The notes: generated by a model from the sequence alone, not told the origin. 64,000 bases of DNA from an uncultured delta proteobacterium (GCA_963711565.1 CAVQEQ010000004.1:1248001-1312000), one strand, 5' to 3'. Shown: positions 57,376 to 64,000, numbered from the stretch's first letter. Translations and numbers: made by a program.

Positions 57376-57975
57376 GTGGCGGACGAAGCGGTGAACAGGA
57401 TTGGCGCGATCCTCGAGGAGCTGGGCGCACGGTTCGATCTCGTGGTCGAGGCCGTTTCGGGTTTCGGCGGACGCATGGATACGCTGCGCGACGAGATCTT
57501 CGGGCAGTTCGCGGAAGTCGGCGGCCAGATTCGATTCCTGTCCGAGCAGATTGCCGAGAATCGCAGGGGTATCGTCGCGACGCGCGACGATCTCGGCGCC
57601 GAGATGATCCGGCTGGGCGAGGCGCTCGGCAAGGCCCGCATTGAGTTCCGCGACGAACTGGTTGCGGCGCAGACGGGGCTTCGAGGCGAATTTGCCGCGC
57701 GCGCCGTCGAGTTCCGCGAAGAGGCCGCGCGCGCGCTCGCATCCACCGGCCAGCAGGCGGTAGCCACGGGCGGCGAGACGACGAAGATTCTCAAGCGCGA
57801 AATCGCGGCATCAGCCGAAACGGCGGCAAAAAAACTCGGTGCGGAGTTGAAGCAGACGAGCAAATCGCTCGCGAACCTCGCTCGCAAGTTCGACCGCTTC
57901 GACGATCGGATTACAGTTCAAACGCGCGACCAGGATCAACGCCTACGAAAGCTCGAGCGCAAGCGCGGCGCGTAA
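57376..57975 (+). CDS. Hypothetical all-helical/coiled-coil protein
   Basis: AGAGGA RBS, GTG start; amphipathic helical periodicity; no recognisable motif. Confidence 0.65.
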   Translation: MADEAVNRIGAILEELGARFDLVVEAVSGFGGRMDTLRDEIFGQFAEVGGQIRFLSEQIAENRRGIVATRDDLGAEMIRLGEALGKARIEFRDELVAAQTGLRGEFAARAVEFREEAARALASTGQQAVATGGETTKILKREIAASAETAAKKLGAELKQTSKSLANLARKFDRFDDRITVQTRDQDQRLRKLERKRGA

Positions 57976-59535: not shown

Positions 59536-60771
59536 ATGAAACTTTACGAAACCGAACGACACGAACGCTTAATCGAAACCGAGTGGAACGAAGACCGCGC
59601 GCGCGACGCCATCGATAGAATCGTCACCGACACAAATCGAAGCTTCAGCTCGGAACACCTGTGGCCAATCCATCCAGTCGATCGGTCCGCTGAACGGCCG
59701 ACGGATTCCCTCAAGTACCTGTACCACGGCGCGGCAGGAGTGATCTGGGCGCTCGGCTATCTGAATGAGACCGGCGCCGCGGCCGTCAAGCGCGACTATC
59801 TCCCCACGGTGCGCCAGTTGATTGCGCGAGTTCGCGTGGACTTGGAAAAGTACCCGGTAGTGCGAAAGTACATGGGTGCCGAGGTCGCGTCTTACATGCT
59901 GGGCGAGGCCGGGATTCTTCTCCTGCAGTGGAAGCTGGCGCCGTCAGATGACGTCGCCCAGCAACTCTATAGCCATTGCGAGGCGACGATCGGAGATCAA
60001 CGCGGTTTAGCCTGGGGTAGTGCAGGCACGATGCTCGCCGCGCTTTTCATGTACGAGCGGATCGATGACGCGCGCTGGAGGGAGCTGTTCCTTCGAAGTT
60101 TCCAGCCGCTGTGGGATCAATGGAAATACAGTGACGAAGCGCGCTGCCATCTTTGGACGTCGAGTCTGTACGGCGTTACCGAAATGCGCATGGGAGCAAT
60201 TCATGGGTTCGCGGCCAACGCGTATGTGATGATTCGTGGACGTCATTGGTTCGAGCCGAATCTTGCGGACGAAATGTTGAGGCGAATCCACGAGACGGTT
60301 CACGCAACTGCTTTGATCGAAGGATCGCGCGCAAACTGGCCGAACAACGTCGGACTCACGACGAGGCCGGCACCGCTGGCGATTGTCGTGCAACACTGCA
60401 ATGGCGCTCCCGGGATTGTCAATTGTCTGGCGGAGTTTCCGAATGATGCGCGCTGGCCCATCGACACGTTGCTGCTGCGGGCAGACGATCTGATCTGGGA
60501 GGCTGGGCCGCCAGTCAAATTTCCCAGCCTATGCCACGGCGCTGCTGGCAGCGGCTACGCCTTCCTGAAGCTCTACGTGCGCACAGGCGACGGCCGATGG
60601 CTGGACCGGGCAAGAAGATTTGCCATGCACGCTATCGACCAGTGCGACAGCGCTGTCAAAAAATACGGCCAGCGGAAGTTTTCGCTATGGACCGGAGACC
60701 TGGGCCTCGCGATCTATCTGTGGGACTGCATCGGAGGGACCGCGAAATTCCCGACGCTCGATGTTTTCTGA
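59536..60771 (+). CDS. Stand-alone lanthionine synthetase C-like (LanC-like) protein
   Basis: Repeated GxxG motifs, GAIHG, QHCNGAPG, LCHGAAG, LWTGDLG. Confidence 0.85.
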   Translation: MKLYETERHERLIETEWNEDRARDAIDRIVTDTNRSFSSEHLWPIHPVDRSAERPTDSLKYLYHGAAGVIWALGYLNETGAAAVKRDYLPTVRQLIARVRVDLEKYPVVRKYMGAEVASYMLGEAGILLLQWKLAPSDDVAQQLYSHCEATIGDQRGLAWGSAGTMLAALFMYERIDDARWRELFLRSFQPLWDQWKYSDEARCHLWTSSLYGVTEMRMGAIHGFAANAYVMIRGRHWFEPNLADEMLRRIHETVHATALIEGSRANWPNNVGLTTRPAPLAIVVQHCNGAPGIVNCLAEFPNDARWPIDTLLLRADDLIWEAGPPVKFPSLCHGAAGSGYAFLKLYVRTGDGRWLDRARRFAMHAIDQCDSAVKKYGQRKFSLWTGDLGLAIYLWDCIGGTAKFPTLDVF

Positions 60772-60794: not shown

Positions 60795-60823
60795 TTGACG
60801 CACATCCATTGCGATCATAGATT
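60795..60823 (+). promoter_or_regulatory. sigma70 promoter of the pyr operon (TTGACG-N17-TAGATT)
   Basis: Near-consensus boxes with 17-bp spacing, just upstream of the attenuator. Confidence 0.75.
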
Positions 60824-60830
60824 CTGATCA

Positions 60831-60861
60831 CCTTTAATCCGCTACTGAGATAGCGAAAAGG
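60831..60861 (+). promoter_or_regulatory. PyrR-binding-loop-like RNA element
   Basis: CCUUUAA...CGCUA-CUGAGA-UAGCG...AAAAGG; CnGnGA hexaloop; upstream of pyrR. Confidence 0.75.
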
Positions 60862-60889
60862 AATGACAATGAAAGTGTATACTTTCGGA

Positions 60890-60920
60890 CCCGGCTGTTT
60901 TTGCAGCCGGGATTTTTTTT
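60890..60920 (+). terminator. Intrinsic terminator of the pyr leader (attenuator)
   Basis: CCCGGCTG-N6-CAGCCGGG then A and T8, 10 nt before the pyrR ATG. Confidence 0.85.
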
Positions 60921-60930
60921 GGGCCGCACG

Positions 60931-61479
60931 ATGACCGCCGCGCCCAACGTCGCGCTCGACGCCGCGCAGGTCGGGCGTTCCGTCAAGCGGATCGCGATGG
61001 AAATCGCCGAGCGCAACGGCGGGGCCGACAACGTCGTGCTGGTCGGGATCGTTCGCCGCGGCGCCACGCTGGCCGAGCGTATCGCGGTCGAGCTGCGCGC
61101 CAACGGCAAACGTGAGATTCCCGTCGGCACGCTCGACATCTCATCCTATCGCGACGACGGCAAAGGTTTTCCCGGCGACCCGCGGCTGATAGGCCGCGAG
61201 ATTCCGTTTTCGCTCGACGCGAAGCGCGTGGTGCTCGTCGATGACGTGCTGTATACCGGGCGAACCGTACGCGCCGCGCTCGACGCGATTTCCGATCTGG
61301 GCCGCGCGGAATCGGTTCAACTCGCGGTACTGGTCGATCGCGGAGAGCGTGAGCTTCCGATTCGCGCCGACTACGTCGGCAAGAATATCCAGGCCCCGCG
61401 GGGGCAACGTGTTTACGTGCGGCTTACTGAAATCGACGGCGCGGACGCGGTCGTGATCGGCAATGCTAATGGAAAATGA
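60931..61479 (+). CDS. pyrR: Pyrimidine attenuation regulator/uracil phosphoribosyltransferase PyrR
   Basis: RIAMEIAERN, GTLDISSYRDD, VLVDDVLYTGRT, DRG-RELPIRADYVGKN motifs. Confidence 0.95.
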   Translation: MTAAPNVALDAAQVGRSVKRIAMEIAERNGGADNVVLVGIVRRGATLAERIAVELRANGKREIPVGTLDISSYRDDGKGFPGDPRLIGREIPFSLDAKRVVLVDDVLYTGRTVRAALDAISDLGRAESVQLAVLVDRGERELPIRADYVGKNIQAPRGQRVYVRLTEIDGADAVVIGNANGK

Positions 61480-61526
61480 GGTTGAACTCCTGCGCTCGAC
61501 GCGCGACGAACACTGAAGTGTCACGC

Positions 61527-63464
61527 TTGGCTAAATTTGACGTCGTTTCGATCGAGGACCTCGAAACCTCGGACATCGAACGCGTATTTGCGCTCGCCGA
61601 CGGCTTTGCTGAACAGCTCGATCGTGGCAAACAGGTCACAACCGCCGCCGGACTGATCATGGCTACGCTATTCTACGAACCCTCGACGCGAACGCGCCTC
61701 AGCTTCGAGTCCGCGATGCATCGCCTCGGCGGCGCCGTGATCAGCTCGGCCGACATGCAGGCGAGCTCGGCCGCCAAGGGCGAGAGCTTGGCCGACACGG
61801 TGCGCGTCGTCGCCGGTTACGCTGACCTGATCGTGCTGCGCCATCCACATGACGGCGCGGCGCGCGTCGCCGCGGAGTACGCGCCATGCCCGGTGCTGAA
61901 CGCGGGCGACGGCAGCCGCGAGCATCCGACGCAAACGCTGTGCGATCTGTTCATCCTGCGCAAAAAGAAGGGCCATCTGAAGGGGCTGACCGTCGCGCTG
62001 TGCGGCGATCTGAAATTCGGTCGTACCGTCCATTCGCTGATCTACGCGCTCGCGCGTTTCGGCGCGAACATCGTCGCCGTGCCGAACAGCGGCATGAATG
62101 TTCCCGACTACGTGCTCGAGCGGCTCGCCGCCGAACGCAATTACAGCTTCTCGACTGTAACGATGGAGGAGCTGAAGTCGTTGGCCGGCGGTCTCGACGC
62201 GCTCTACCTCACGCCCAGCTCGCCGCATCAGATGGCGCTATTCACCGGCGACGACGCCTTGCGAACGATCCCCGCGGCCGAACCTCCCGCCGCGCTCGAC
62301 GCGTTCTACGTCACGCGCCTGCAGAAAGAGCGCATGTCGGGGAAAGAAGCGGGTGCTGCCGATTACGTACGCTTCGACGCGCGCGCGCTTCGCACCAGTC
62401 GCACGAATGAAGCCGTCGTGATGCATCCGCTGCCGCGCACCAGCGAGCTGGCGTACCAGCTCGACGCCGATCCACGTGCGGTTTATTTCGAGCAAGCCGC
62501 AGCTGGCGTGCCAGTCAGGATGGCTTTGATCGCATGGCTGATGGAAAAAGCCGACCACGCCTCGATCGCGCCGCGTCCGACCGTGGAGCCGATTCGTTTC
62601 AAGGCCGAGCCCCAGCCGCGATGCGCCAATCTGAACTGCATCACGCGTTTCGAGGGAGCACACCTGGCGCCACGCTTCACGCTCGGCCGGAGCGTCGATA
62701 GGACCGTGCTCGCGCTGAAGTGCGGCTTCTGCGAACGCGAGCTGAAAATTGAGTACGTCGGTCATGCGCGCTCGCATCGCTACTATCGCTTCGACGAAAA
62801 CCTGCAAGGCTACGTCCGACAATGGATCGAAGAAGGATCGCTGGCAGTGTTCGACAGCGTGAAGCAGGCTGAGGAAGGCGGCTACGAACCTTACAAGCGC
62901 GGCCCTCAGCGCGAGGTCATGAACGAAGAGGAAGTCGTCAGCGCGGTCGAATCGCTTGCCGAGCAGGTGGTCGCGGACGTGCACGATATGGCGAGCGTCT
63001 CGATTGTCGGGGTAGTCAGTCGCGGCGCGATGCTCGCGCTTCGCCTGCGCGATCTCATCGGATCGAAGACGGGCGTTCTTCCTCCGTGCGCCGCGCTCAA
63101 CGTCTACAAACCAGCCGACGCGATGCATCCGATCGATGGCACCGAGAACTTTGTCGTCGAAGAGCGCACCATCGTGCTCGTTGATGACGTGATTAACAGC
63201 GGCTGGACCGTGCAACGCGCGATGGCGACGATCTGGCAGCGCGGGCGTCCAGCGGCGGTCAAGCTGGCGGTGCTGATCGATCGCGGGCATCGCGCCGTCC
63301 CGATTCGGCCGAATTATGTCGGCAAGAACATCCCGACCTCGCGCACCGAGCGCGTGCAAGTGCGCCTCGCCACGGCTGGAAGCGATCCGAAGGCTAAATC
63401 GCACGACCGGGTCATGATCTATTCAATCGTCGAACCGATGAAAGAACCCGAGGCGGCGCATTGA
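61527..63464 (+). CDS. pyrB: Aspartate carbamoyltransferase fused to a PyrI-type zinc domain, an Ada-like domain and a PyrR-like domain
   Basis: FYEPSTRTRLSFE, KGESLADT, HPTQ, RLQKER, MHPLPR; then CANLNC...CGFC; then a PRTase domain; start may be GTG 61518 or TTG 61527. Confidence 0.9.
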   Translation: MAKFDVVSIEDLETSDIERVFALADGFAEQLDRGKQVTTAAGLIMATLFYEPSTRTRLSFESAMHRLGGAVISSADMQASSAAKGESLADTVRVVAGYADLIVLRHPHDGAARVAAEYAPCPVLNAGDGSREHPTQTLCDLFILRKKKGHLKGLTVALCGDLKFGRTVHSLIYALARFGANIVAVPNSGMNVPDYVLERLAAERNYSFSTVTMEELKSLAGGLDALYLTPSSPHQMALFTGDDALRTIPAAEPPAALDAFYVTRLQKERMSGKEAGAADYVRFDARALRTSRTNEAVVMHPLPRTSELAYQLDADPRAVYFEQAAAGVPVRMALIAWLMEKADHASIAPRPTVEPIRFKAEPQPRCANLNCITRFEGAHLAPRFTLGRSVDRTVLALKCGFCERELKIEYVGHARSHRYYRFDENLQGYVRQWIEEGSLAVFDSVKQAEEGGYEPYKRGPQREVMNEEEVVSAVESLAEQVVADVHDMASVSIVGVVSRGAMLALRLRDLIGSKTGVLPPCAALNVYKPADAMHPIDGTENFVVEERTIVLVDDVINSGWTVQRAMATIWQRGRPAAVKLAVLIDRGHRAVPIRPNYVGKNIPTSRTERVQVRLATAGSDPKAKSHDRVMIYSIVEPMKEPEAAH

Positions 63465-64000
63465 ACTCGATCGTGCTCAGAGGAGGCCGCGTGATCGATC
63501 CGGCGAGCGCACTCGACGGCGACTATGACGTGTTGGTGCGCGATGGCCGGATCGCAGCGGTCGAACGCGCCGGTGCTCTGAAGAGTATCCCGGATGCGGA
63601 GGTGGTCGATACGAGTGGATGCTGGATCGTACCGGGCCTGATAGATCCGCACGCGCATCTGCGCGACCCCGGCTTCCCGGAAAAGGAAACGATTTCCACT
63701 GGCCTGCGAGCCGCGGCTGCCGGTGGCTTCACAACCGTTGCGGCGATGGCAAATACGTCGCCGGTCAATGACAGTCCCGCGACGACGCGCTACATGCTCG
63801 ACCGCGCGAGGGATGCTCACGCGGCGCGACTGGCGCCGGTGTCGGCGGTCACAAAAGGTCTCCGCGGGATCGAGCTGGTGGATTTCGCCGCGATGCTTGA
63901 AGCAGGCGCGCGGTTGTTTTCTGACGACGGTATTCCGATCGACGATGCGATGGTTCTGTCACGCGCATTGGATGAAGCCGGGCGGCTCGGATACGCGGTG
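63461..64000 (+). CDS. pyrC: Dihydroorotase (type I), 3' truncated by window
   Basis: Translated by hand from TTG 63461: GGRVIDP, PGLIDPHAHLRDPG, KETI, AAAGGFTTV, MANTSPV, FSDDG. Confidence 0.93.
   Translation, partial: MNSIVLRGGRVIDPASALDGDYDVLVRDGRIAAVERAGALKSIPDAEVVDTSGCWIVPGLIDPHAHLRDPGFPEKETISTGLRAAAAGGFTTVAAMANTSPVNDSPATTRYMLDRARDAHAARLAPVSAVTKGLRGIELVDFAAMLEAGARLFSDDGIPIDDAMVLSRALDEAGRLGYAV

Follow-up and report, generated by a model that had tools for sequence, protein, structure and literature searches.

An aspartate carbamoyltransferase of uncultured soil Binatia that carries a PyrI-type zinc domain and a PyrR-derived putative sensor domain on one chain

Results

The DNA analyzed here is a stretch of 64,000 nucleotides from an uncultured delta proteobacterium of the class Binatia (GCA_963711565.1, CAVQEQ010000004.1:1248001-1312000), to which we refer as the window and along which coordinates are counted. 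On its plus strand, the pyrB slot of the pyr operon is occupied by a fusion gene in which an aspartate carbamoyltransferase (ATCase) catalytic chain (61518..62561) is followed by a domain resembling the C-terminal zinc domain of PyrI (62607..62750), a small domain (62751..62897) and a PyrR-derived domain of the phosphoribosyltransferase (PRTase) fold (62898..63464), here referred to as PyrR2. Judged by its sequence, this gene encodes, on a single long chain, the enzyme that starts pyrimidine synthesis in a group of uncultured soil Binatia. The Pfam domains OTCace_N (residues 5-145), OTCace, PyrI_C (residues 365-409; 28.1 bits, cut-off 23.4) and Pribosyltran (residues 466-600) were each matched above their cut-offs. 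This agrees with the domain order PyrB, zinc, small, PyrR proposed in an initial annotation of the window and with the approximate positions that it gave for the cysteine motif, the small domain and the PyrR-like domain, which we place at 62622-62738, about 62751-62897 and about 62907-63428, respectively.

Translation of positions 61527-63464 yields 645 residues with zero internal stops, as expected from the uninterrupted open reading frame (ORF) of about 645 amino acids described earlier. Of 115 loci (partly redundant), 102 have all three parts in a single frame free of stops, and a break within the catalytic part shortens four of these 102; the 13 exceptions comprise nine loci chosen from non-fusion families, two cut by contig ends and two with frameshifts. 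Contigs from four public runs contain zero indels on the fusion stretch. A stop between the domains, as might betray an assembly artefact, was thus not found. The idea that the fusion is such an artefact, or a functionless product of passive read-through, is scarcely credible and is largely refuted by conservation. An artefact is ruled out by the conserved frame and the indel-free runs; in addition, the fused state is shared by five families and by deep clades at 30 to 38% identity, and purifying selection is strong. Frameshifts do occur in the fusion gene in a few assemblies, but several broken assemblies have a broken pyrC as well. The TTG at 61527, which had been taken as the start codon, is CTG in most relatives and was dropped, as 46 of 48 distinct start regions from relatives have an ATG or GTG at 61518, three codons 5' of it. 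Translation probably starts at GTG 61518, giving 648 amino acids, or else at ATG 61476, which overlaps the pyrR stop and would give 662.

The catalytic chain is of the class B type of archaea and E. coli and passes the NCBIfam ATCase model TIGR00670 (291.7 bits, cut-off 236.95). The FxExSTR, RxQxER and HPLP motifs, which are ATCase catalytic motifs according to the available text of a 2015 review (PMC4581275), are all present. With the substrate-binding residues S53-T56, K84, R105, H133, Q136, R166, R264 and Q266 invariant in 38 of 38 aligned fusions, the active site is, as far as the sequence can tell, intact. The closest solved structures are those of the Pyrococcus (1ml4) and Methanocaldococcus (2rgw) enzymes and E. 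coli PyrB; among named full-length proteins that stand alone, the nearest are mostly from archaea. In the phylogenetic tree, the chain branches within stand-alone PyrB proteins of the archaeal type, at a great distance from the PyrB of other Binatia. A tblastn search of the whole genome (4.84 Mb, 94.9% complete) returned the fusion as the sole ATCase match, and otherwise one distant carbamoyltransferase (27%) and the adjoining pyrR. The catalytic chain is complete, as had been claimed, but an insertion of about 28 amino acids had been overlooked (62211..62294, plus strand; residues 229-256 of the aspartate domain). It lies just before the 240s-loop motif, duplicates the strand preceding RxQxER and measures about 28 to 40 residues across all aligned family members. 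A repeated β-strand and a conserved P-x-x-P-H-Q were observed within it in every aligned long form and in every aligned short form, the latter being PyrR-less relatives described below.

The zinc-domain cysteines C366, C371, C399 and C402 are likewise invariant in all 38 aligned fusions. PyrI_C was matched in 29 of 29 members, and profile alignment to residues 108-150 of E. coli PyrI gave an E value of 0.0002; the Cys pattern was thus rightly equated with the PyrI C-terminal zinc domain. The allosteric domain of PyrI (PF01948) is absent from the fusion protein according to Pfam and was not found in the 94.9% complete genome. A separate pyrI elsewhere in the genome was considered and rejected, as neither tblastn nor the PF01948 search found one; extended to 151 genomes of the class, the latter gave 0 of 151, and the same search was positive in 7 of 14 controls. 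The statement that no PyrI N-terminal domain is present therefore holds for the protein, the genome and this wider set.

The roughly 50 residues 3' of the zinc domain are predicted to fold as β-β-α-β-α. Profile matches stayed below the cut-off, both for Ada_Zn_binding (2 of 29 members, best E 0.025) and for sunset (2 of 4, E 0.0033 and 0.074). The top rows of a VIA search were 1u8b, the Ada N-terminal domain (Z 3.5, root mean square deviation 3.4, 57 residues aligned), and 1eyf (Z 3.4, 4.3 and 71, respectively), in a search that is weak for this model, as the PyrI zinc domain itself reached only Z 2.3. Foldseek against Ada gave an E value of 1.5, and an ESM Atlas search with the small domain returned no usable match. 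There is no conserved Cys in residues 409-457, yet the domain as such is under strong conservation. The earlier label "Ada-like" consequently receives weak support from four methods, but the zinc-binding cysteines are lacking and the profiles remain below their cut-offs; weakly, the domain is best named Ada/sunset-like.

Adjoining the fusion is a gene for a free PyrR, here referred to as PyrR1 (60931..61479, plus strand), which scores 210.5 bits with NF003549 (cut-off 138); PyrR2 reaches 128.2 bits with the best NCBIfam PyrR model, under the cut-off of 138. In PyrR, RNA binding resides in helix 1 and catalysis in the flexible loop, and UMP and GMP are both bound, with GMP favoring the tetramer. 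Savacool and Switzer are said to have implicated the basic N-terminal helix in RNA binding in 2002, and the residue roles used here reportedly go back jointly to Tomchick 1998, Savacool and Switzer 2002, Chander 2005 and Perica 2014. We compared motifs among 127 fused domains, 123 PyrR1 proteins from fusion loci and 16 PyrR proteins from non-fusion families, all sets being deduplicated and one unassigned locus and two paralogues being dropped. The two copies were found to divide the conserved features, with the pocket motifs on the fused copy and the helix and YRDD on the free copy. Neither the helix-1 arginine pair nor the YRDD loop occurs in any of the 127 fused domains; the former is kept in 123/123 and the latter in 122/123 PyrR1 proteins, and both in 16/16 non-fusion proteins. 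The phosphate loop DD..[TS]G.T is present in 127/127 fused domains, 100/123 PyrR1 and 16/16 non-fusion proteins, the histidine of DRGHR in 126/127, 3/123 and 16/16, and P[T/S] at residues 603-604, which belongs to the KNIPT motif, in 125/127, 1/123 and 16/16. In an enlarged non-fusion set, the histidine and P[T/S] are both kept in 41 of 41 distinct motif strings, and unrelated stand-alone PyrR proteins keep the histidine in 61 of 71. In PyrR1, eight different residues stand in for this histidine, so that the site looks like one under relaxed selection, and the phosphate loop is altered (Thr to Arg or otherwise) in 23 of the 123. PyrR proteins from non-fusion operons score 223 to 257 bits with the PyrR hidden Markov model, and those of fusion bearers at most 213. 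In all PyrR2 copies, helix 1 is acidic, with a net charge of -1 to -6 (mean -3.6, versus +1.0 in PyrR1).

Having lost the RNA-binding helix and the catalytic loop, PyrR2 probably does not serve as an attenuator or as an efficient uracil phosphoribosyltransferase; a role as RNA-binding attenuator was rejected in view of the lost helix-1 residues (0/127). Because the K-T-R pyrophosphate loop is also variable in the fused domains, neither catalysis nor sensing of phosphoribosyl pyrophosphate, one of the ligands named in the initial annotation, is likely, and we rather assume a monophosphate site. The description of a full PyrR-like domain is accurate for the PRTase fold, the phosphate loop and DRGHR, but the domain is degenerate in its RNA helix, YRDD and pyrophosphate loop. 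Across 19 same-genus pairs, the ratio of nonsynonymous to synonymous substitution rates is lower in the PyrR2 core (0.031) and the small domain (0.032) than in the catalytic chain (0.064). In the PyrR tree, the fused domains form a clade of their own with deep forms that are not Binatia-like (Shimodaira-Hasegawa-like approximate likelihood ratio test [SH-aLRT], 94). This speaks against a recent duplication of the adjoining pyrR, but the approximately unbiased test does not reject a clade of Binatia PyrR1 and PyrR2 (p 0.26).

An AlphaFold2 model of the full chain has a predicted local distance difference test (pLDDT) score of 80.8 and a predicted template modeling score of 0.71, with the insertion and the linkers uncertain. 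Modeled as a homodimer, residues 361-635 scored 0.55, and the best of three controls scored 0.00. Among solved one-chain pairs, 20 of 30 attained that mark, and among single chains, 1 of 23; the runs share at least 83% of contacts and have a pLDDT of at least 76. For this segment, the earlier expectation that the PyrR domain dimerizes is in line with the prediction. The predicted interface (residues 551, 560-570, 576-580 and 590-596) lies wholly within PyrR2. Throughout the five families, several of its positions depart from canonical PyrR (W/F570; R563, D567 and D596 lost), which suggests a dimer that is specific to PyrR2 itself.

The module of zinc and small domains was found in 77 of 251 Binatia genomes, this one included. 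By family, the counts are 39/39 in f1, 17/20 in f3, 1/1 in f5, 16/16 in f10 and 3/3 in f16 (76/79), and it is absent from all 171 genomes of fifteen other Binatia families, so the check on clade conservation was positive. The genome tallies include four unpublished genomes (G018, G023, G226 and G231), on which no claim depends by itself and without which the f1 count is 36/36. Named relatives are Candidatus Binatus and Binataceae. At nine loci of other families, pyrR is followed by an ordinary unfused PyrB, with pyrC present in eight. As this native PyrB is far from the fusion chain in the tree, the fusion appears to have displaced the native pyrB in situ. More distant long forms were found at 38% (P0133) and 30% identity (P0154 and P0292-P0296), and YRDD is retained in these two deep clades.

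Short forms with the insertion and the zinc domain but no PyrR were also identified. Among 401 genomes of the phylum, just one outside the class matched, and its match was a short form. One of the short forms is P0423 (473 amino acids), which aligns to only the first part of the small domain; another is L187:3773-5131 (-) of genome G283 (452 amino acids), which spans the whole small domain and terminates at its last motif (hhalign 98.8%). A search of G283 (84% complete) returned no PyrR; pyrC follows the short form there. The three best Atlas clusters (467-486 amino acids; Planctomycetota, Chloroflexota and Pseudomonadota commonest) have OTCace and PyrI_C only, as do 26 of 30 matches, and phmmer with the short-form tail found no match in the PDB. 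L187 is the first branch inside the insertion clade (SH-aLRT 98; next node, 86). Because this sensor-less form is found in other phyla and branches first, the PyrI sensor was probably lost earlier and the PyrR domain added later to a sensor-less enzyme; a single origin of the addition was not rejected (p 0.37). The proposal that PyrR replaces the PyrI allosteric domain therefore describes the end state but not the history.

The neighborhood of the fusion varies. No pyrC lies beside it in f3 (0/16 loci) and f16 (0/3), and carA directly follows in the metagenome loci read (loci concerned: L021, L024, L025, L144-L146 and L155-L167; L116-L129). In five genomes of the f3/f16 type, the best match to the operon PyrC is only 28 to 30% identical, two of the five matches being classified as allantoinase/dihydroorotase-like. 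A third PyrR paralogue (DRGGRELP) is present in f3 and f14 (L142:1724-2275 [-], L143:1862-2524 [+] and L218-L223). In the loci read, it adjoins an amidohydrolase gene, and in L218 it precedes ATP-binding cassette transporter genes; it is possibly a regulator of nucleobase catabolism. Family f14, with a low-scoring PyrR and no fusion, was considered as a counterexample and set aside, as its PyrR is this different paralogue, in a catabolic cluster in the one fully read locus. None of six f14 paralogue loci contains a pyrB or pyrC match. The lack of an ATCase-level match in four of five near-complete f14 genomes (G095, G064, G103 and G117) suggests pyrimidine auxotrophy. In the f14 genome G110, PyrB is encoded separately, next to a dihydroorotate dehydrogenase-like gene (L235).

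Upstream of the fusion, the plus strand carries a σ70-like promoter, TTGACG-17-TAGATT (60795..60823; 1 found versus 0.2 expected in shuffles), and TTGAC-like sites also lie 5' of relatives' leaders. The leader (60827..60920) resembles the pyr attenuator, with a PyrR-binding hairpin and an intrinsic terminator (60890-60911); its Rfam RF00515 score of 38.6 bits (E 0.0052) is under the gathering score of 54, and its fold has a z score of -2.18. The pattern of PyrR site and start codon recurs in 70 of 74 f1 loci and 12 of 16 non-fusion loci. A leader ORF of 23 codons (60863..60934) has its ribosome-binding site hidden in the 3' arm of the PyrR hairpin, extends across the terminator and shares its stop with the start of pyrR (ATGA), an arrangement that suggests attenuation by translational coupling instead of an antiterminator. 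PyrR1 keeps the basic helix and YRDD and has lost the DRGHR histidine and the P-T of KNIPT. Downstream, pyrC (dihydroorotase; 63461..64000) overlaps the fusion stop with its start, and carA and carB follow past the window end. Two further genes were noticed: a LanC-like stand-alone protein (PF05147) at 59536-60771, after a major facilitator superfamily transporter and directly 5' of the pyr promoter, and a 199-residue helical repeat-like protein at 57376-57975, 3' of lepA-lepB, whose matches are only weak and of the apolipoprotein type.

Discussion

As its phosphate loop is invariant while the catalytic and RNA-binding features are gone, the PyrR-derived domain is best read as a noncatalytic nucleoside-monophosphate sensor. 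We lean toward the view, which we regard as somewhat probable from sequences and models, that it bridges two catalytic trimers and provides feedback in place of PyrI. The catalytic domains would trimerize and each zinc domain would dock on the catalytic chain, as in E. coli, while PyrR2 domains are predicted to pair via the 590-596 strand and the helix that comes next to the phosphate loop on its C-terminal side. A trimerizing catalytic domain with a dimerizing tail implies a hexamer of two trimers like the E. coli holoenzyme, here with three equatorial PyrR2 dimers. UMP, to which PyrR responds according to the available text of one paper (PMC13328217), and perhaps GMP too would occupy the retained phosphate and base pocket, and the ligand would shift the assembly through the Ada-like and zinc domains. 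Free PyrR1 retains the RNA helix, YRDD and a leader RNA site.

Several points weigh against this sensor reading. The motif counts are dominated by one family, f1 (83 of the 127 fused domains and 74 of the 123 PyrR1), and relatives are not independent. The deep clade P0154 and P0292-P0296 keeps YRDD and lacks DRGHR. Furthermore, it is by position that the histidine and P[T/S] are assigned to the lining of the base pocket, and since the unrelated paralogue from catabolic gene clusters has also lost both, their loss may mark only lost uracil turnover. PyrR dimers have already been solved, and the dimer score may reflect memory of, or likeness to, these structures. In E. coli ATCase, the loop after RxQxER bears the inter-trimer T-state contacts; in the fusions, this loop is variable and is preceded by the insertion, so switching between T and R states of the E. 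coli kind may not apply. Lastly, the existence of the short form shows that the ATCase of this lineage can do without a PyrR domain.

That the PyrR domain is only a structural bridge between two trimers, conferring stability or cooperativity with no response to nucleotides, seems to us rather unlikely. The predicted interface is entirely in the PyrR domain and is remodeled in all five families, dihydroorotase dimers offer an analogy in the Aquifex-type ATCase, and PyrC is not required as a neighbor, since pyrC is missing beside the fusion in f3 and f16. A pure scaffold, however, would have no need of pocket motifs, and the phosphate loop, the histidine and P[T/S] lie outside the named interface yet are better kept than in PyrR1.

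The reciprocal retention of features is also what would be expected if the fused sensor bound or released free PyrR1, which has the RNA face and a decayed pocket, so that the enzyme also controlled attenuation. The acidic helix 1 of every PyrR2 could then be an RNA mimic, and phosphate-loop changes in 23 of 123 PyrR1 proteins coexist with a conserved leader RNA site. We nevertheless judge this quite unlikely: the remodeled dimer face suggests insulation from PyrR1, the acidic helix may merely pack on the Ada-like domain, and almost every PyrR1 retains DD, R and G of the pocket and could still be a nucleotide sensor. Its fullest form, a single PyrR split in two whose enzyme-borne half would govern both catalysis and pyr transcription by catching or releasing PyrR1 on its acidic face, is an unlikely proposal under which the ATCase would regulate its own gene. 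Very unlikely, in our view, is a domain that is an active uracil phosphoribosyltransferase and has taken salvage over from PyrR1, which would make the fusion bifunctional and not allosteric. DD, [TS]GxT and DRGHR are retained, and upp was not found in this genome or in any sampled fusion-bearing family. However, YRDD is absent from 127 of 127 domains, the K-T-R loop is variable, and most non-fusion families likewise gave no upp match, the gene having been found in just 12 of 151 Binatia genomes, all of one genus.

ATCase is a textbook allosteric enzyme, and to our knowledge, few modes of its control are known, namely, PyrI dimers, dihydroorotase partners, CAD and UMP binding in plants. If the sensor reading is correct, a natural ATCase that keeps the zinc adaptor but connects it to another sensor fold would show how modular this allostery is. 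The family lends itself to testing this stepwise, from PyrB on its own through the short form that lacks a sensor to the long form that carries PyrR. The complementary losses in the two PyrR copies direct attention to the residues by which nucleotide sensing and RNA binding come apart in PyrR, and they raise the possibility of a physical coupling between enzyme feedback and attenuation. The fusion is the only ATCase type found in the examined genomes of five families of Binatia, a common soil lineage.

The initial annotation did not recognize this architecture as described, and no description was found in the literature searched, a set that most classical ATCase and PyrR papers and supplements lie outside; control of ATCase by a PyrB-zinc-Ada-PyrR chain is apparently unstudied. 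The available text of the 2015 review names three prokaryotic ATCase assembly types and contains no occurrence of "PyrR" (PMC4581275). With the class B ATCases of E. coli and archaea, the fusion shares the catalytic-chain type and the four-Cys zinc docking domain, including the Asn, Glu, Phe and aromatic-Cys-acid pattern of PyrI 108-150, and probably also the trimer-plus-dimer geometry. Class B enzymes, however, consist of two PyrB trimers and three PyrI dimers, and in E. coli, nucleotide control requires the three regulatory dimers that join the two trimers (PMC4581275, available text). The fusion is one chain without the PyrI allosteric domain, and unlike class B enzymes, it has the insertion of about 28 amino acids before the 240s loop and Ada-like and PyrR-derived domains after the zinc domain. 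In fused PyrBI, reportedly described for Thermotoga and Treponema by Chen et al. in 1998, the catalytic and regulatory parts are likewise in one polypeptide. That protein carries PF01948 (511-residue Atlas cluster; Thermotoga matches), which the fusion lacks, and the fusion reaches only 84.7 bits with the PyrBI model PRK13376 (cut-off 800).

PyrR2 shares the PRTase fold, DD-x-x-x-[TS]G-x-T, DRGHR and KNIPT with the PyrR/uracil phosphoribosyltransferase of Bacillus (1non and 1a3c) and, going by the prediction, may likewise dimerize, but unlike Bacillus PyrR, it is fused to an enzyme, has lost the helix-1 basic residues and YRDD and, at 128.2 bits, falls under the PyrR cut-off of 138. The short PyrB-PyrI_C-Ada-like ATCases of Chloroflexota, Planctomycetota and others have the same insertion, zinc and small domains and belong to the same catalytic clade (SH-aLRT 98), but end after the small domain (452-486 amino acids), without a PyrR domain. 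In contrast to the Aquifex and CAD systems, pyrC stands by itself as a gene here, and the operons of f3 and f16 lack it. With the ATCase-dihydroorotase dodecamer of Aquifex and with CAD, the fusion would nevertheless have in common a second, dimeric fold that bridges two trimers (PMC4581275, available text), the proposed bridge here being a PRTase-fold domain that is reached via the zinc domain of PyrI.

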